Of a stretch of DNA of 64,000 nt, positions 1-20,486 are shown in pieces. The notes under the pieces were generated by a model that had not been told where the DNA came from, made no database searches, and saw only the letters and a list, made by a program, of their open reading frames with translations. The position numbers were made by a program, and so were the translations under genes. Source of the stretch: Yuukianura sp. NJ FZ-2021. Its lineage: Eukaryota. The stretch is from contig CM102286.1 in NCBI GenBank assembly GCA_046563655.1, positions 62,001-126,000 of the forward strand, read 5' to 3'. Numbering within the stretch: the stretch's first letter is position 1; every line of letters starts with the position of its first letter.

Positions 1-1111
1 AGAGACCCTGGATTCATGACGGGGTGGAAGGGACTCATCCAGATCGAAGCCAAGGACTCCACTGCTGCCATTTTGGTCGTCTTCCTCCTCTTCCTCATCC
101 CCAGGGATCTCGACGTTCTCTTCGGAGGTTCATTCTCAAAATTACACTTTGGAAAAAGGATTCTGACTAAAAACTTTCTTACTCAAAATAAACTTGTGTT
201 CATTTTAGAAATGCCACCAAAAAACCCGGGTGCTTTGTTGGACTGGAAGCATGTCCAGAAGAACTTACCGTGGAGTGCCGTTTTATTGCTTGGTAGGAAC
301 ATCAAAAAAAGTGTATTTCCTCGAATATAAGACGCGTCTTATCTCCGAAATTTCGACAAAAATTTTGAAAAAGAAATTCACTTTCAAAATAGGAACCCTG
401 ACGGAAAAAGAATGTTTTTAACTTTAAACTTTAGGCTTTCGTCCATTATTAGAGTATTTTTGAGAATTTCTGGGTGCGTCTTATACGCAAATGCGTCTTA
501 TAGGCGAGGAAATGGAATAGTTTACATATTTTTCAGTTTTGTTTTTAATTTATTTTGTGATTTAGGTGGTGGGTTTGCGTTGTCGGATGCTGCCGAGGCG
601 TCTGGTTTGTCTGACTGGATTGGAGAGCAGTTGAATGTGCTGCAGCCTCTGCCGCCCTGGTGCATTCTGCTAGTCGTCATGGTCGTCACCACCATCATCA
701 CAGAAGTCACTTCCAACGTCGCCACGGCCAACATCCTCGTCCCCATCCTCATCAGCCTCGTAAGATCAAATACTGCGCACTACTTTCACTTCTAAATCCA
801 AGTTTTCATTTAATTTGTGGTTGAACTAGTCGAGGAAATTAAACTTGCACCCACTCTACCTGTCCATTGCGTGCACCGTCACTTGTTCCTACGCCTTCAT
901 GTTCCCTGTCGCCAGTCCACCCAACGCCATCGTCTTCTCAGCCGGTGACCTCACGATCATGGACATGGTCAAGACTGGAGCATTTCTCAAAGTGCTCTGC
1001 ATGGCAGTCTTCTTCATCCTCAACATCACGTATGGAAATGCTGTCTTCAATTACGACAACTACGTCTACCCAAACACAACCACAACTACACCACCACCCA
1101 TCTTAGCCTAA
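1..1111 (+). CDS. SLC13/Indy-family sodium:dicarboxylate/citrate cotransporter, 3' part (gene starts upstream of the window)
   Basis: Spliced exons (~1-127, ~210-291, ~565-759, ~829-1111) encode LLDWKHVQKNLPWSAVLLLGGGFAL, TEVTSNVATANILVP and SYAFMFPVASPPNAIVFS, which are SLC13 signature segments. Stop TAA at 1109-1111. Confidence 0.9.
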
Positions 1112-1274
1112 CCTTGTTTGTCAGTAGTTAAAGTAATAAAAACTAATAAATCCTTTTGGAGCAAATAGTACAACTGTAGCAAGGACGAAAGTTCATACTC
1201 GCTAAAACGTATTTCCAACGTTCATCCATATTTTTGCTGTATTTATGCAAAAAAATTAAAAATTATAAATGAAA

Positions 1275-1347
1275 TACCCCAGGCAGGACTTGAACCTGCA
1301 ATCTTCGGTTTAGGAGACCGACGCCTTATCCATTAGGCCACGGGGGC
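1275..1347 (-). tRNA. tRNA-Arg (anticodon CCT)
   Basis: Reverse complement is GCCCCCGTGGCCTAATGGATAAGGCGTCGGTCTCCTAAACCGAAGATTGCAGGTTCAAGTCCTGCCTGGGGTA: 73 nt, A box, B box (GGTTCAAGTCC) and a cloverleaf with CCT anticodon. Confidence 0.95.
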
Positions 1348-2296
1348 TTCAAGTAAGCGTCCTGGGTGAAGAATTCCGTTTTGTTGTTTATTCCCAAACC
1401 GGCTTTTTTGTTGTTGGTCAGATGTCGGCAGAAATCACTCAGTTGTTTGTTAAAAATTATTAAATGACGTGCACACTTTATATTTTACTAATATAATTGG
1501 CATAAGTTTGTTAGTATTAATTATTATTATCATTAGTAATAAAAAACTAATTATTAAAGAATTAGTTTAAGAAATTATTATTTTGTAAGAATAATACATA
1601 ATACTAGATTATTGTGTAATACTAATTACCTATTCATCTTACTGCCTATCCATATTTATGAACACGAGCCTGCGAAATCAAATGACACTAAGCCTTGTGA
1701 CCTTTTTTTTTTTCGTAGTTTTTCCTTTTTTTACTAAAAATTAGCAATACGCGACGTTTCCTCTGTTGCCTTTTAAATTAGCTAAAATTTTTAAATTCTT
1801 AAAATACTCGATTTGGGAACGGTTTTAATTTTTTTTATAGGTAGAAGGTTAATAATTGTGATTGTTCGGAAATATTTGGAACTGGATCGTTTTTTATCAG
1901 GTTCTTTCTATGTGTAGTCTTTAGTGCAACAAAATTTCAGCATAAGTTCATGTTATAATAAGCGTTGGTTTTTTTTTAAATTTTAATTCACATTTAATTA
2001 TGAATAGTACATATATAAAAGAAACAGGTAAAGAAACAAGAGAAAAAAGGAAGAAGACAAGAGTGATCAAAGGAATGGAGCGAATGGGAGATAAAAATGC
2101 CGACATCGGTTGAAAGGAGGGAGGATTCTCGTCTCCCTCTTCCTTCTGTCTCCATCAACAAAGCGGAAGTGGAGATCATTTGAGTTGCCGTCACTGATCT
2201 GATATTCTGTTGTTGTGACGACAAGTGTCACCCGGGATGTGTTTCAACCAAGTCAACAACTGAGGTCAACCGATACTTTTATCAATCGTCACCCAA

Positions 2297-4123
2297 ATGG
2301 GGTAAGCAGTCTCTTGTTCTTACTTTACTCTTTTGGTCCAGGGGATCCATTGACAGGACTTTGTAGTACCATCTTGTACACCTATTACTGTACTTGTGGT
2401 TAATCAATTAGTAATTGGGTGTGTTTTGAACATTTATCTGTTCCAGAGAGTCACCGATCTTCACTTGTAAGGCTCATGTGTTCCATATCGATCCGGGAAC
2501 GAAGAGATCATGGCTCCCTGCCTCATCAGTGGCTGTCCCAGTCTCCTTCTTCTACGACTCTTCCAGAGCACTCTACAGAATCATCTCAGTCGAAGGCACA
2601 AAGGTAACCTTATCCAAACCACTTTCATCCATTAAGCCCCGCAATGAACATCAATTCAATATGATAAGCCACAACTCCGCTTTTTATATAAAGTAAGGAA
2701 CGTTTTATTGACGTTTTCCTGTCCATAGGCGGTGATCAACTCCACAGTGACCCCTTCCATGACGTTTACGAAGACGAGTCAGAAGTTTGGTCAGTGGTCT
2801 GACGTGAGGGCGAATACTGTGTATGGACTTGGGTTTCCTTCGGAAGCAGAACTCAACAAGTTCATAGACCAATTTGCCACGGTGAAGGAAGCCACCAAAG
2901 GAAAAGGTGGGACTACAAATGGAAGTGGATCCAGTGGCAGTTCAGCCAACGTTCCCATCCCACCTCCTGAGTCTGGTTCTTACGGCAGAGAAGATGTCAA
3001 CTCCAACGAGGCCAATGCCAATTCAGTGGCTAAAGTGAACTCTTCTGGAAGTAGCCATGGGAGGAGTCAGTCCCTCTCAGCTGTCTCTCCTGGCCCTCCG
3101 ACCACGGAGAGTCCGAAGCATCTCCAGAAACAAAATTCGGATCTGTTCAAAGGACCCCTCAAATACGACACATCAGAATCAGGACTCAAATACGAAAACG
3201 AACGACTTCGACTCGCTCTCTCACAAAGGTACGCTTTACTATGTTTATCTAATAGCTAAAACGGAATCCTAACTTTTTCCTTTTCGTTTTGTTATGCCAA
3301 TGGTTTAGTTGTCTAACTTTTGGTTGGTAATAGGTAGATGCTCAAGTTAGTTTGTAGTTTAGTTACTAAAAGTTAAATTATTAATTCATCGCACAAAACT
3401 AATAAGTGGAAGAAAATGTGTTAATATTTTTGGTTTTGTATTTGTTTTGTGTAGCTGTGCCAATGCTAAGAAATGGGAAGTGGAGCTGGCGACGTTGACG
3501 ACCAATAACAACCGACTAACTGCAGCTCTGACAGAAAGCAAAGCGAATGTGGATCAATGGCAGCGGCAGCTCAGGTAAGGTTCTAAGTTTGACATGAATC
3601 TATCCATTGGAACTGGAAGTTTGAATGTTTTGGTTTCATCTTCATGGTTTCAGTGCCTACAAGGAAGAGAATCAGCGACTGAAGCAGAGGGCGTTGGAGG
3701 CTGAGGCTGCGAGTGGGAGTGCAGATGCTGCACAGGAATTACGCAAAGAGTTGGCCCTTATGCGGGATAAGGTTGATGCAGTTCAGGGACTGCTCAAGAA
3801 CAAAGAAGAAGAACTTCGAGTGCTCAGAGAAAGAACTCCAGAATCTCAGGAACCCCCCAAGGACACTCCATTCGTAAGGATCCACATTCAATTTAAACCA
3901 TAACATAATAAGTTTATTTTCCTGTGGTTTAAAGTCTTGTGCTTTGCAGGAAGTGGAGAGTGTGCGTGGAGCTTTGGCTTCTGCAGAGGCGCAACTGGAG
4001 GCTGCCTTGGGAGCTCAAGAGTCCCAACGCCGTGTTCTGGAAGCACTCAACTCTCAACTGGCAGACAAAATCCAGGAACTGCTCGCAATCCACAGAGAAG
4101 TGAACGTGGCTCTGCAGACATGA
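2297..4123 (+). CDS. homer: Homer scaffold protein (EVH1 domain plus coiled coil)
   Basis: First coding exon is ATGGG|gtaag at 2297-2301, then [23 protein letters not shown]...[24 protein letters not shown] (Homer EVH1). Coiled-coil exons include [13 protein letters not shown]. Ends LQT-TGA at 4121-4123. Confidence 0.95.
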
Positions 4124-5151
4124 ACGAGACTTATCTTCTACCCTGCATCATGGCATTTACTCTTCCCTCAAAAACCAGGTACGAACTGTCTTCACTTTTC
4201 TCCGCTTCCCTGGATTCAATCAACAGAATTCATGGCAACAACATGTCGCTTCCAGTCGTAAATGCCATGCTGCCGAAGGGCTGCTAGAAGTCGAAGGTTG
4301 TTTTGGGTTGTGTTGTACTTGGCCACTTGAAATCGGAACTCTTGGAGTGCCGAATGGTGGACCAGTACTTAGACTAAGTTCGTTTTAAGCCTTTTCAGAG
4401 TTTCATACTCATTCTCGATTTAGAATTGGGCAGTTGTACTGCCTACCTTAAATGACTAATTGCCAAATGTGAGATTTGGAATGGCTGTTAGCCATGACAT
4501 GTGACTGTTATGTTTACTCGTAACCTAGGTTACTTTAGTTGGTTTAGTCTTTTGTGAGTTGTCCACTGTTGAGGACAACGCATGCTTACTTGTCTATTCT
4601 ACAAAAGGATAGCCCAACGTTAGTCAACGGATATTCACTTTCCATTTCTAAAGTTGAAATTAAGGGACTTGATTGGAACTTCCGTTTGAAAAACTAGGTT
4701 CCGTTGGATTATTGACTAGATTAATACGAACAGTAAGTGATTGGTTGTTTAGTTTGTATTTAATCATCATGACGTTAGCCGAGTGACCTCCACTTCCAAA
4801 GTTACTCTCTTGTTGAAATTATGAATCTCAGGCAGCTTCACACGAGACTGCTTTAAGTTGTACGATTATTTATTAATTTATTGTGGCAAATAGGCTGCTC
4901 AACTGTCATTGTATTGTGCAATTGTTCTACTTTGTCCATTTAGTTAGCAGAGTAGCTTTAGATGTAAAATTAAGTTTGAGATTTGGACATTCCATTCCAC
5001 TTGTCATTCCTCCCAGTTCAAAGTAGCTTCCTGATCATACTCAGACATTGAAGTGTCAAAGGTACTTTTTATTTGTCTATTAAAGATAGACTTAGTTTGA
5101 CTAGTTTGAATGGTTGGGTGGGAAGTGGGCGTTGGTCGATTAAGGCTTGTG

Positions 5152-8100
5152 TTATGTTTTGGGGGCGGGTGGAAGTCCCATGTGGAGGGGTTTGGTGGGG
5201 GAGGGTGTAGGCACACTCTTGGAATGTGGCATGGCGGAGTCTGGGCGGAGGAGGTTGGAGGAAGTTCTGCCCAGCACTTTGCTCAGCACCTCCGGAAGTC
5301 CCTCCAGCGCCTCACTCAGTCCCGCCAACTTCTCCTCTATCGTGGACAGGCGATCCTCTAAGTGGTCCTGACGACCCGACAAGTCAGACACGATTTCATA
5401 CACTGTGTTCTGCGTCTGAAATCAAAGGACGTTATACTTGTAGCACAACTTGGTTTCAAATCCACATTTCTCACCGGTTCGGATTCTTTCAAGTCAGGAA
5501 AAAAACACGGAATCCGGATTTTTCGTTTCATTTTAGTTTCATTTTTCATTTTAGGGAATGGACCAATTGGAAAATTCAGGTGGAAAATCGAAAAATTGAG
5601 GATTTCATTAATTTCAGTTGGTCAGCATTTGCTGAACATAATCATCAAGTTTTCTTGGTTTTCGGAATTTAAAATCGACGTTGATGATCATTTCGAAAAA
5701 CGAAACAATTTTCGTATTTGCGGTTTGGTATAAATGCGGTTTGGATCAAAATCCGTGGAAATTCAAAATCCGGATTTGTGAAAAACGGTGAGAATTTCCA
5801 CCGTTGTTGGTCAGAATGTGTTTGTTTGTGGAGTTACCTTGGCCATGTCAGTGATTGTGTTGGCGTTGTCCATTAGTTTCCGTTGGTCCATCTTCACCTT
5901 GCGTAGTCTGCGGAGAAAGAGGCTTTAGAGAAAGTTTTGTAAGTGGGTGTGGTTCTTACGCGTAGATTGCGAGGAGGAACTTTCTTTGGTGAGCTCTGAC
6001 GCGAGAGGGGTTGACTCGTTTGACGAGTTTCGTGTGTTTGTAGATGAGCCACGTCTCACGCAGGACGTTGGCCGCAGAGTTCTTCAGCTACAGCACAAAA
6101 CAAACATTATTTCTGACTTTACTTTAGTCCCGGGTTGCCCAAGTCCTCTTTCCCCGAGAAAGTTATGGGAAAGAGTAGTTGGGAAGCCGGGTGAAGGGGT
6201 ATTTGGGCTCTGACTCTTCTCTGGAGTTGCTTTTGCATGATGAGGATGTGGACCCGTTTCTCTGCCTCGTGCATTGTGAGCTTCTGAATGATGACTGCCA
6301 CCAGGACGGCCATGGTGGCATTGCCCTGTAACAACGCATACCTCTAACCTTGTACTGCAGAGAGCATGCAGAGCACTCTTTGGGGGTTAGTGTGTGAGAA
6401 GAGTCAGAGGAGGGGGGTTACCCTCTTGGTCAGCTGTGTGTCCATCATGAAGTTGTGGACGTGTTTCTCTGCCCGACTCAGCTCCATCTTGCGGGAGACG
6501 ACTGCGACGAGTAGAGCTGTGCACCCAGCGCCCTGTGGATGAGGGGGTTAAGAGTTAGTGGGGGGAAGGGAGTGAGAGCAACTAAGAGTTACCATGAGCC
6601 CAGTGAGAGTGGCGATGCCCCTGCCGCAGCAGGTGGACGGAACAACGTCTCCATACCCAACTGACAGGAACTGAAACGAGGTCAAAGGTCACTCCAATCA
6701 CAAACCACCGCAAAACACATCAGGAACAAGGCATCAGCAATCCAAACACAGCAGCTATGAAATCACGGCAGCCGAAACCGTAGAGCGGCTCAAAACGGCT
6801 CCAACGCTTTCACCGGAAGTGGATTTTTGAATCCTGCTTTCACAGGTAAATTGTAAATTGAAATCCAAAAGGCATCTAACGCACCAGCTTCAGTACATTG
6901 TACCTGTGAAAGCACGATTTAAAAATCAACTTCCGGTGAAAGCATTGCAGCTTTTTTATGGCTCCCATAAGCAGGAAAGACTCAAGCAGTAATTATAAGC
7001 AGTGCAATTATACCAGCAATGATTGCTCCCAAATTAAATTAGGTTGACGTTAATTTTAACTTGACAGAAAATTTCTTAACATAATTTACTATATTTCCAA
7101 GAAAAAAGAAAGTCAACAAAATTTCATTTAACTTCAGAGCAATTTGTGATCTTGTGATGTAATTGCGCTGCCTTAATTAAGTTTCATGTCTTTCCTGTTT
7201 ATATTTTTTCGGCTGCTGTGTTTTCATTACTGATGTGTTTGAATTGCTTATGTTTTTGTTTTGTGTTGCGTTTTGTGGTGATGTTTTTGTGATGTAATGG
7301 GGTGGTTGTGGAAGATGACTTTTGTGTGTACTTACCGTGACAGCAGTGACCCAGAGCCAGTCGACCTGGACATGCTCAGTGTCGTGGTACCTGGAGGAGA
7401 GTGCAATGAATACCATGGCAACCCTCTGACCTTTGACCTCTCCTCTAGTCAGACAGCAGTGTCAGAGCCCCACCCTCCTAATTTACTCCTAATTTACTCC
7501 CGATTCAGAGGAAATGCTTTCTCTTGGGGAAATTGACCTTTCCCCGAAATCCTTGTGTTTAAGCGGGTTTCAGTTGGGTAGGAGTGGTTGTTGTCTCACT
7601 CCCTGGATACTTACCATCATTCCGCAAGTGATGCAGATCCCTCTGCCGCAGTACGTATTGGGCACGATGTCTCCGTAACCTAGGACAGTCTCAGTCATTC
7701 ACTAATAATCTCTCTTTAGTGTCCCACCTACCTATGCACAGAAACGTCACTGCCACCAAGTACAGGCTACAAACACAAACAAACTTTTAGAATCCCTCCC
7801 AAGGACAAGTTAGGGCATTTCCACACCAGCCCAAATGAGAGTCCACTTTCTCTTTTCTAGGAATCTCTTTCGTGGATGCTTGAGTGAAATGAAAGTGGAA
7901 TTTGTAGATGAAAGTTTAGATGTTTGAATTTCAATTTGGGTGTGGTTTTGGCTTGAGTGTGGAAATGCTGAAGTGAAGTAGGGCGTACCTATTGAGGAGG
8001 TTGGCGTGGTTCTCCTCGTCGTGATGCCTTTAAAGAGAAGTAGAGTAACTATTGGGCACAGATGCACACCGATAACCAGAGTAAGCGTACGACACCGACA

Positions 8101-11100
8101 GCAGGAGAGGTGACTTTGTCACTCAAGGGCTCTGACCCTCTGCTCACATGAGGAGGGGGCAAGCAGGGAAAGCACACAGCAGTCCACACAACTCACCTCT
8201 CGCACTGACGCAGAGTCCACGACGCAATCATCCACAGAGACACCATGAACACGAGCAGAACAGTCCCCGGACAGATCGTCATCAACGTCTTCAGCACAAA
8301 CCTAAAACACAATTTACTTTCACTTTCACTTTACACAAAAATACTTTGTCCACCTCCCAATTTACAAAAACAACATTAGACTCCCCTTTTGAATTTTTAA
8401 AGGGACTTTAATGGGGCCTCACTTTTCCACATTCCTTTCCAAACGGGATGCGTGCATTATTGAGTAGGTTCTTTGTGTTTTCCTTATTACCCCGCCCTTA
8501 TTTCCTCCTCTTTGAAAGAGAAAGTGGATGTTTATTTTCCAATTTGTGATGGGAGAGTTGGAATTTGTTGTGTTTGTTCACTTTGTGATTTGGTGAATGG
8601 GTGAAAGGGACTTTACCTTGTGTTGAAGTTGATTCTGTTGAGTGCTCCGATGGACCTGGAGGATGCATCCGTGAAGAGCTTGGAGTGGAGGAGCATCACT
8701 CTGCAGATGAGGTAGAGGCGGAGGAACATGGGCAGACTCAGGGCCACGTCGATCGGTACTTCCTGCAACACAAGAAAGTAGACAGGGTACTTGAACTTAA
8801 GGGATGGGTACTTACCTTGGTGATGGGTTGGGGGTGGAGAGTGTTGGCTAGTTTCGTGGTCCATGTGAAGTAGTAGCGACCAGGGATGGGGTGGACTGCG
8901 CAGATGACGAGTTCCAGGGCAATCTGGGACATGCGCTGCCATGTCATGGCAATCCGCCAGTCGTCTGCACAGTTGTCGATCATAAACAGCTACAAACAAA
9001 GTGGGCATTTGAATAGTGTTGTAAATGCTTCAGGGTCGGGAGGTTTTTTCGTTTCAGTGAAAGAAACTGAAATAAATGAAAAAAACTGAAAAATTGAAAA
9101 AAAAACTGAAAGAAAGTGAAAATTTCGTCTATGTTTTTTTCATTTCACTGAAACAAATTGAAAGAAAGTGAAAGAAATTGAAACATTTCGTTGAAATATT
9201 TCAGCTTATCAGTGAAAGAAATTAAAGAAGCTGAAAAGGTTTGTTCCGTTTCATGTATGTTTCAGTTAATTTCAGTTTTTTTCACTTTTCACTGAAAAGT
9301 GAAATATTTCACTTCTAACACTGCATTTGAATGACCTTGACATTTGGAGGGGGGGGGGGCGATGAGCACAGGAGGGGGGCACTTAACCAGTAGAGAGTAA
9401 CAACGGAATTCCATTGACTCAGTCACTCGCAACAACTTTTTCCATGGCCTCCCACTAATCGACAATTATTGTCGATTTCAGCTGAGAACGGGGGGTAGCG
9501 ATTCGCTAGGGTAATTGTTGATTTCAGCTGAGATCGGGGGTGGCGATTCGCTAGGGTAATTGTCGATTTCAGCTGAGATCGGGGGTGGCGATTCGCTAGG
9601 GTAATTGTCGATTTCAGCTGAGATCGGGGGTGGCGATTCGCTAGGGTAATTGTCGATTTCAGTTGAGATCGGGGGTGGCGATTCGCTAGGGTAATTGTCG
9701 ATTTCAGCTGAGATCGGGGGTGGCGATTCGCTAGGGTAATTGTCGATTTCAGCTGAGATCGGGGGTGGCGATTCACTAGGGTAATTGTCGATTTCAGTTG
9801 AGATCGGGGGTGGCGATTCGCCAGGGTAATTGTCGATTTCAGCTGAGATCGGGGGTGGCGATTCGCTAGGGTAATTGTCGATTTCAGCTGAGATCGGGGG
9901 TGGCGATTCGCTAGGGTAATTGTCGATTTCAGCTGAGATCGGGGGTGGCGATTCGCCAGGGTAATTGTCGATTTCAGTTGAGATCGGGGGTGGCGATTCG
10001 CCAGGGTAATTGTCGATTTCAGTTGAGATCGGGGGTGGCGATTCGCCAGGGTAATTGTCGATTTCAGCTGAGATCGGGGGTGGCGATTCGCTAGGGTAAT
10101 TGTCGATTTCAGCTGAGATCGGGGGTGGCGATTCGCTAGGGTAATTATTCTTGTGCACACTTTTGGCAACTGGTGACGTTTTATTTTGGACGTCCCAAGG
10201 CCAAAATTCCTCTTTCACAGTGTCTCCACTTGGCAATTATCAAGGCTATTCATCGCCGCATGCAAAAAGCTATGCTACTGACACTGGCATGACACTAGTT
10301 AGTGACATCTATTGAAAATTAGCAATAATTGACACATTTTATGAGTTAGGGTTAGGAATGTTGGAGTTTGAGTAGTGAAAGTAGTGTGGCTAACCTGGAC
10401 TTCGAGGGCGTGATATGCAACGATCAGTCCCACCAAAATCAACGTGGACACTGAAATGAGTGTCTTGATCGCTGTAGAGTAGAAAGACGTCTAAGGAATC
10501 ACAGAATCAAACAAACTCGTTTTAGTTTTTAAAGGAACATGCAATTTTGATGTTGTTTAGGCGGAATGAATCCGAACCCGGTGTAAAACTTTGTAAGACA
10601 AGGAAAAGGTTAGTGAATTGATTGTGTTTGACTAGAATGAATTTCTCCCCTTGACCTCTCATGGCCATCTTGTCTGAATTATGGAGTGACAACTCAAGGT
10701 CACGCATGGACTCTTCATTTGGTGGAGTGAAGGACAATGGTGGCTCAATTGCCCCACTTTCATCAACTCCTTCTCTCAATAATTCACACCTCCAACTCTC
10801 TCCTGCACAAACTGCCCATTCACAATATTTCTCCACTCCAATCCCCGTTTTCAATTACTCTTCTCTACTTTCATTCGTGAGAATGAGTCAGTGGAGAGTG
10901 AGTTATTTGGAGAAAGTGGATGTTTCATCATTCCATCGTCCTCTATTGATTGACTGTCACATCAACTCCACCAATCCCATCGCTTTCTCCAGTCTAAATG
11001 TCACCCAATTCTCCACTAACCCAACTTCCAACTACTAAAATTGGACATTTCCAATTTCTCAACTCCCCTTTGTCCACTTCATTCAATTCACCGATGTTGA

Positions 11101-19877: not shown

Positions 19878-20486
19878 TCACAAATCCAAGAATTCGTCGT
19901 CATCATCGTCCAGATTGCTTCTGCGTCTGTCAAACTGAGAGGAAAAAGTCGCTTAAACATTTGACTTCAAACTTAGGTTAAAATGTTTGTTGTTTACCTT
20001 GACCTTGGTCGTGTTTTTAGTCTTTTCGCTCACTTGCTCCAGTAGTCCAATGAGTTGACTTTCTCCCAGCTTGTCCCTCAACTGCCCACTGCGAGCCATG
20101 TTGATGAGAATGGCCTCTATCCTCTGCGCCTTCTCTGGCTTCGCAATCATGATCGTGTTCACTAAAAACAGAAACTGGAATTTAGGAAGTGGCAACAACA
20201 GTGGCAACAAGAGTGGCAACAAGTCTTACGTCGTGCTCTTGCCTGCTGGTCCAGAATCTGACTCAGCAGTTGGTTCTTCATTTGCTCTGCCTGATCTCGA
20301 CGATCCTCCTCCTCCTTCTTCTTGTCCTCTGACCCACCCTGCAATTTCATCAATTACTAATTAGTTACATTCTTAATTAGTTTAATCGAAGGTGAAATTC
20401 AAATGTGAGAGTCTTACACCGCCCGATCCCTGCATTTGTGCTAGTCTGTTTCCTCGCAGGGCTCCAACTTCTGCATCCTCCATCAT
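19878..20486 (-). CDS. PDCD5: Programmed cell death protein 5
   Basis: Four exons: MEDAEVGALRGNRLAQMQG...EQMKNQLLSQILDQQARARLNTIMIAKPEKAQRIEAILINMARSGQLRDKLGESQLIGLLEQVS...VKFDRRRSNLDDDDDEFLDL*. Confidence 0.93.

Follow-up and report, generated by a model that had tools for sequence, protein, structure and literature searches.

Splicing near the pore or the calmodulin (CaM)-binding domain of vertebrate SK channels tunes or suppresses SK current; the variants include CaM-binding-domain truncations of SK1, a three-residue insert in SK2 and the ex4 turret insert of SK3, and to our knowledge none of them duplicates S6/HA. Closer in form are the tandem duplicated, mutually exclusive exons of the arthropod genes cacophony, slowpoke and para, which like the SK pair described here are homologous, equal in length and phase and located in ion-channel genes. 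The divergence of the SK pair (16/37 residues identical) resembles that of the cacophony pair (16/39), which in the parts of PMC9741552 covered is old and common to insects and crabs. The same parts list Drosophila SK as having a duplicated exon, with the exon left unspecified, and the parts of PMC6454897 covered give 14 annotated Drosophila SK isoforms with no mention of an alternative S6/HA exon. The preliminary description of this locus knew of no such exon in described SK genes, and in agreement with it we found none described in the literature searched, most subscription papers being beyond reach. The duplicated exon of the Drosophila list is presumably the pore exon. As to regulation, we drew on partial texts of PMC2724269, PMC6071210, PMC3769271 and PMC7797038: in tau exon 10 and in CG33298 of Drosophila the 5' splice site is covered by a complement, intronic or local (PMC2724269, in part), and ATE1 exons 7a/7b are in-frame duplicates with a pairing element in the intervening intron, the loss of pairing giving a double-exon mRNA (PMC7797038, in part).

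The SK gene of the window, by which we mean the whole 64,000-nucleotide stretch of DNA analyzed, lies on the minus strand with its exons in the order S5, pore module A, pore module B, S6A, S6B and HA/HB:

8197-8301, minus strand: S5 exon, preceding pore module A
7615..8027, minus strand: pore module A (Cys-type), alternative, in three exons (7989-8027, 7732-7766 and 7615-7679)
7336-7390, minus strand: pore module B (Ser-type), exon 1
6593..6670, minus strand: pore module B (Ser-type), exon 2, immediately upstream of S6A
6422..6532, minus strand: S6A, the canonical exon, coding for the inner S6 half and the first HA half (human SK2 382-418), its donor supported by RNA
6326..6421, minus strand: A-B intron between S6A and S6B, 96 nt, GT-AG, its removal seen in RNA
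6215..6325, minus strand: S6B, divergent duplicate of S6A, 111 nt, phase 0, its acceptor supported by RNA and its orthologues known
5960..6087, minus strand: HA/HB exon, coding for the rest of HA and for helix HB (CaM-binding domain), the next exon after S6B

The two 111-nt, phase-0, AG/GT-bounded exons of the preliminary description are confirmed, each coding for the expected peptide, and S6B is indeed a colinear paralogue of S6A, with 64/111 nt identical in an ungapped alignment. The description also placed the segment at the inner gate helix and the start of the CaM-binding domain, and this assignment holds: a profile built from ten A and B units matches human SK2 382-418 (E 1e-20), S6B alone aligns to residues 385-418 of solved SK2 chains (E 0.018-0.035), and against the SK2/SK4 structures (PDB 9vu9, 8v2g, 6cnm) S6B is a colinear 37-residue unit, as expected of a homologue of the SK (KCa2/KCa3) S6-HA segment. 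The S6B donor, AGA/GTCAGA, is non-consensus. A Pfam scan assigned no family to the 37-residue S6 units, which are too short, and in the ESM Atlas S6B falls among ordinary SK clusters with all feature scores below 0.9. Searches of the genome itself (98.7 Mb in 22 contigs), each with two scored candidates, placed each S6 exon once and found no further copy of either; an origin of S6B from another SK paralogue of the same genome was considered and rejected, no such paralogue having been found.

Orthologues of S6B occur at four metagenome loci, in one Logan ORF and in SK models of a crab and a damselfly. The metagenome loci (L004-L007) are the four confirmed among 460 pattern matches in a JGI scan; S6A is followed by S6B with identical length and phase in 4/4 (S6A of L004 being truncated by the contig end), and the HA/HB exon is also visible in 3/4. 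Neighboring internal exons that are homologous and match in length and phase are thereby found in 5/5 loci including the window, all with the S6B donor AGA/GT at the same codon boundary. Three of L004-L007 share one assembly, and because synonymous sites are near saturation these three probably come from different species. A phmmer search with S6B against 1.84 billion representatives returned two matches: the Logan ORF, of 47 residues and 65% identical to S6B, and an SK model of Strigamia maritima (P0004) with two tandem, near-canonical 37-residue units, probably an alternative pair that was mis-joined.

Among the best 120 of 1902 SK proteins examined for a tandem region, 12 have tandem S6/HA units (Strigamia, one; lepidopteran-type models, nine, eight of them named Lepidoptera and one with a cut first unit; the crab Petrolisthes manimaculis, one; the damselfly Hetaerina americana, one), and no vertebrate protein among these 120 has one. 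The second unit is of S6B type in two of the 120, the crab and the damselfly, so that at least two public protein models already contain S6B without comment. Two more of the 120 carry other duplications; the internal SK duplications of P0006 (Toxocara canis) and P0071, spaced 103 and 48 residues apart, may reflect either module duplication or faulty assembly. As a separate observation, the lepidopteran-type second unit is identical in 11/11 models (P0007-P0014, P0017, P0126, P0127), has four differences from the first, and is a conserved candidate exclusive exon distinct from S6B.

Both S6A and S6B have been under purifying selection across species. With synonymous sites near saturation, pN/pS of S6B is 0.07-0.39 over 10/10 pairs (Fisher p <=1.2e-4), at 0.07-0.15 among L004-L007 and 0.21-0.39 between the window and those four. 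The preliminary description had suspected selection from the open frame and proposed an orthologue search in relatives with a selection test; the suspicion is borne out, and the search yielded a conserved exon in the four loci, the crab and the damselfly. In a tree of 37 columns the eight S6B units form one clade (support 100/100), within which the window copy is the most diverged, with 20-25/37 residues in common with the other copies against 24-36 among the others, and has the longest end branch (0.38). The window S6A equals the crab unit at 37/37 residues and differs from the insect units examined, so that the window probably belongs to a crustacean or a hexapod outside the insects. In the parts of PMC9741552 covered, another exon pair common to insects and crabs is dated to at least 530 million years, and since the insect-crab split applies to S6B too, the same dating would hold for it. 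On these sequence comparisons S6B is best described as an ancient duplicate of the SK S6/HA exon, apparently maintained by selection from the crab-insect split or earlier; the preliminary description had not noticed this age. In Strigamia and Lepidoptera the second units are near canonical; unit 1 of Strigamia has two derived residues in common with S6A, and its unit 2 retains the outgroup residue at position 8, like 7/8 S6B copies. These two columns fit one duplication in the mandibulate ancestor, after which S6B would have diverged, with Lepidoptera duplicating or converting the unit independently.

Few stretches of SK channels vary as little as S6 and the first half of HA, where most positions are at least 97% fixed in a set of 124 units covering vertebrates, arthropods and one nematode. 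S6B, kept from crab to damselfly, alters about half of those positions yet keeps the gate and the CaM-coupling glutamate, and so offers a natural variant for the study of SK gating. Thirteen positions are canonical and invariant in 8/8 S6B copies (human numbering): G382, A387, V390, A391, V392, K396, E403, V406, H407, M411, Q414, L415 and R418. Of these, V390 is the intracellular gate of SK2, with T386 one turn before it (PMC12677897, in the parts covered), and E403 corresponds to rat E404, which is essential and forms a salt bridge with CaM K75 (PMC6048120, in the parts covered); V406 is rat V407. K404, whose rat counterpart K405 may contact PIP2 according to the same parts of PMC6048120, is kept in 7/8 copies and is Arg in one. 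The changes are A383N, C385T/S, T386M, H405R/K, N408V/I, F409I/L and D412E/Q, with R395 and E398 lost, at positions at least 98% fixed among the 124 canonical units; the new N383 and M386 are invariant in S6B. R395, E398, H405, N408, F409 and D412 are absent from all eight copies, including five (R395, E398, N408, F409, D412) fixed in canonical SK and kept in 0/8; the rat substitution F410A lowers Ca2+ sensitivity (EC50 from about 0.35 to 0.52 uM; PMC6048120, in part). The residues kept in the HA half of S6B lie on one helix face (periodicity peak 90 degrees, p 0.0008), and helical periodicity of conserved positions is absent from the S6 half (p 0.70). S6B is therefore a specialized unit with the gate and coupling residues kept, and the periodicity by itself does not separate tandem from exclusive use. 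An AlphaFold2 model of the damselfly tandem protein (20-row alignment) has a mean pLDDT of 52, falling below 50 over the S6 region (351-434).

RNA bearing on splicing comes from the one run with any of the stretch, X1, a sediment metatranscriptome in the form of contigs. Four contigs aligned, three at >=99% identity and one at 95-99%. One of them, 151 nt long, joins 87 nt of S6A to 62 nt of S6B and skips the 96-nt GT-AG intron at 6326-6421 (joint as aligned 6324/6421, skip 96), at a depth of 7.8 compared with 2.4, 3.2 and 3.2 for the other three. The junction shows that the S6B acceptor is real and that both exons stood together in that molecule; the S6A donor and the S6B acceptor are both used. 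It comes from one of four contigs, possibly a single molecule, and gives no rate; the contig stops inside S6B, the S6B donor and the joins from pore to S6B and from S6A to 6087 lying outside the coverage of all four, and parts of the gene beyond that coverage carry no weight here either way. The join of the S5 exon to 8027 in pore module A is also present in the RNA.

The damselfly gives the second case of both exons in one product, here a predicted one: NCBI isoform X1 of Hetaerina americana (XP_071449550.1) is A+B and isoform X2 is A only, and the 90% cluster holds these two members and no B-only form. A search of S6B against longer proteins gave 31 candidates, none of which scored, and missed two known S6B proteins, and is thus blind to B-only isoforms. 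Mutually exclusive splicing as the preliminary description proposed it, with the exons never spliced together, does not agree with the A-to-B junction and the Hetaerina A+B isoform. Three ways of enforcing exclusion were considered and none was found: there is no steric block (the A-B intron measures 96, 263, 401, 524 and 708 nt in the five loci and is seen spliced), no frameshift (111 nt is in frame) and no reciprocal pairing that would silence S6A (none significant in 16 tests over 4 loci; smallest p 0.106). Strict mutual exclusion of S6A and S6B is not supported.

Three elements in and around the A-B intron bear on how S6B might be controlled:

6396..6409, minus strand: upstream stem arm, +13 to +26 of the A-B intron, a perfect complement of the S6B donor
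6386..6391, minus strand: ACTAAC motif in the A-B intron
6208..6221, minus strand: downstream stem arm, the S6B 5' splice site itself (last 7 exon and first 7 intron bases)

Folding of the pre-mRNA gives a perfect 14-bp stem between the two arms, with a predicted pair probability of 0.95-1.0. Among 711 donor-like sites in the window, only two are preceded within 250 nt by a complement of this kind, and these two are the same stem read on either strand; the S6B donor has the strongest upstream duplex of ten donors of the gene (-26.9 versus -9.2 to -18.1 kcal/mol). The donor region is predicted to pair with the A-B intron in L005 (22 pairs), L006 (21, the first G of the donor being unpaired) and L007 (15), where the letters of the stem arm track each species' own donor; donor-masking pairing is thus predicted with changed letters in 4/5 loci and is absent from L004. 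Compared with 300 dinucleotide shuffles per locus, the stem has p values of 0.003, 0.007, 0.106, 0.013 and 0.68 (significant in 3/5), with a combined p of 1e-4 against 0.67 for ten control duplexes. The stem is predicted to mask the S6B donor and to leave S6B off by default, a one-sided switch on this prediction, nothing comparable having stood out for S6A in the 16 tests over 4 loci. The stem does not figure in the preliminary description. Splicing from S6A and splicing from a pore exon would alike take out the upstream arm and so free the S6B donor, and the stem alone therefore cannot choose between tandem and exclusive use.

The A-B intron also contains ACTAAY in 5/5 loci, against 0/13 control introns (9 seen versus 1.84 expected by first-order Markov resampling, p 0.0005 uncorrected for 12 tests), and CTAAY lies within 50 nt of the S6A donor in 4/5 loci. 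We take the motif to be a possible branch-point-like or How/QKI-like site. Steric exclusion through a branch point near the S6A donor was set aside as not absolute, the A-B intron having been seen spliced, and a TGCATG element, presumably a Rbfox-type motif, was dropped (3 seen versus 0.54 expected, p 0.019 uncorrected for 12 tests).

S6B is a genuine exon, ancient and under selection, for which a conserved RNA switch is predicted. The reading we prefer, at a probability of roughly 0.48, is that it is a default-off cassette added in tandem after S6A, giving a subunit with loosened Ca2+/CaM gating. S6B is conserved in place, length and phase under purifying selection. The element in the A-B intron would pair with the S6B donor, mask it and loop out S6B, leaving S6A joined to the HA/HB exon as the predicted default mRNA. 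Where the A-B intron is removed and S6A joined to S6B, as in the one RNA contig, the upstream arm would be taken away and the S6B donor freed, and an in-frame A+B mRNA would be completed with no premature stop. In its product, S6A should stay membrane-bound, followed after the gate-coupling segment by 37 extra residues (a short hydrophobic helix and a second first half of HA) ahead of the CaM-anchoring HA/HB helices. Lying between the gate-coupling half of HA and the anchoring helices, these residues should weaken gating: the A+B subunit would be expected to assemble yet couple Ca2+/CaM to the gate more weakly, and SK current would be lowered or shifted in cells that include S6B.

Seen against the known systems, the pair differs from those of cacophony, slowpoke and para in that it duplicates a gate helix with HA and in that the only junction seen includes both copies. 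The stem resembles that of CG33298 in spacing (174 nt, against 185 nt between the boxes there; PMC2724269, in part), and in contrast to tau and CG33298 it is predicted to loop out a whole duplicated exon, with letters that vary by species and pairing that is predicted to persist. In ATE1, R3 pairs upstream of both exons and enforces exclusion (PMC7797038, in the parts covered), whereas the SK element is predicted to pair at the second exon alone, with its donor, and the 16 tests over 4 loci gave no partner at S6A.

Some observations weaken the tandem case: the crab model is labeled a 'hypothetical protein', and few annotated proteins have A+B (2 of the best 120 of 1902 SK proteins). Gene predictors often string mutually exclusive exons together, and several public SK models join duplicated exons in series. 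That S6B keeps G382, A387, V390, A391, V392 and K396 in 8/8 copies would be easier to explain if it replaces S6A, and the near-canonical second copies of centipede and moths look like ordinary exclusive exons. We accordingly regard as a serious contender, though at less than even odds, a leaky mutually exclusive pair in which the selected product joins pore to S6B, skips S6A and replaces S6 and the first half of HA, while A+B transcripts are by-products whose intact frame lets them persist. The B channel would keep V390 and E403/K404/V406, carry Asn in place of A383, Met in place of T386 and an aliphatic residue at position 409 instead of Phe, and lack the charges of R395 and E398, with lower Ca2+ sensitivity and an altered inner pore predicted. 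Equal length, phase and position in 5/5 loci, the 13 invariant canonical positions in 8/8 S6B copies (gate V390 and E403 included), the near-canonical second copies in Strigamia and in the 11 lepidopteran-type models (identical in 11/11), and the enrichment of duplicated substitution exons in ion-channel genes (PMC9741552, in part) all speak for such a pair. Yet the sole junction observed is A-to-B (run X1, one contig), the damselfly cluster is A+B and A only, the 16 tests over 4 loci found no mechanism that would silence S6A, and no B-only sequence was seen, in contigs and a protein search barely able to show one. The splicing mode leans to tandem inclusion on thin direct evidence, and tandem and exclusive products may both exist.

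Two further explanations fare much worse. S6B could have been functional ancestrally and be decaying in the window species, with the A-B junction as splicing noise; the most diverged S6B copy with the longest end branch, and a non-consensus donor predicted to be fully masked, would be expected from this, but the frame is open, pN/pS is 0.21-0.39 with p <=1.2e-4 in 4/4 window pairs, none of the 13 invariant canonical positions has been lost and RNA shows the acceptor in use, which together make decay improbable. Least probable, and very much so, is a terminal exon whose masked donor is never used, so that A+B reads into the intron to a stop and yields a subunit with neither HB nor HC, since the masked donor, the absence of the spliced form from contigs (the donor lying outside their coverage) and a window frame open for 31 codons beyond the donor are set against unconserved read-through tails (31, 16, 3, 25 and 6 residues in the five loci), a GT at the same codon boundary in 5/5 loci and crab and damselfly models that run on into the HA/HB exon.

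Under tandem addition, S6B would be an unusual use of a duplicated transmembrane exon; swapped in for S6A, it would be expected to alter both the inner pore and the Ca2+ sensitivity of the channel. In either case S6B could affect the interpretation of SK currents in crustacean neurons. We also suggest, tentatively and as something we hold to be rather less than evenly probable, that pancrustacean SK genes have for about 500 million years put an exclusive-looking pair to additive use, with a conserved RNA switch on the S6B donor, the result being a modulatory or dominant-negative subunit or one with an S6-like insert docked at either the inner pore or the S4-S5 linker.

Other features of the region were noted in passing. 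Pore module A is nearer the damselfly Cys-type pore and module B nearer the Ser-type, module B looks more diverged than module A in the window, and the damselfly model with S6B has a Ser-type pore; pore module B and S6B may be co-regulated. Both pore modules occur in the window order at 6922-8746 of L005, where the intron of the Ser-type module is at a different place. A hairpin with 25-nt arms, 80% complementary, at 6130-6191 of the window takes up about half of the 127-nt intron after S6B. The neighboring genes at 1-5000 and 19900-20300 of the window presumably encode proteins resembling an SLC13-type transporter, Homer and PDCD5, as judged from translations. At 9426-10236, a 45-nt tandem repeat in an SK intron gives rise to long minus-strand open frames.
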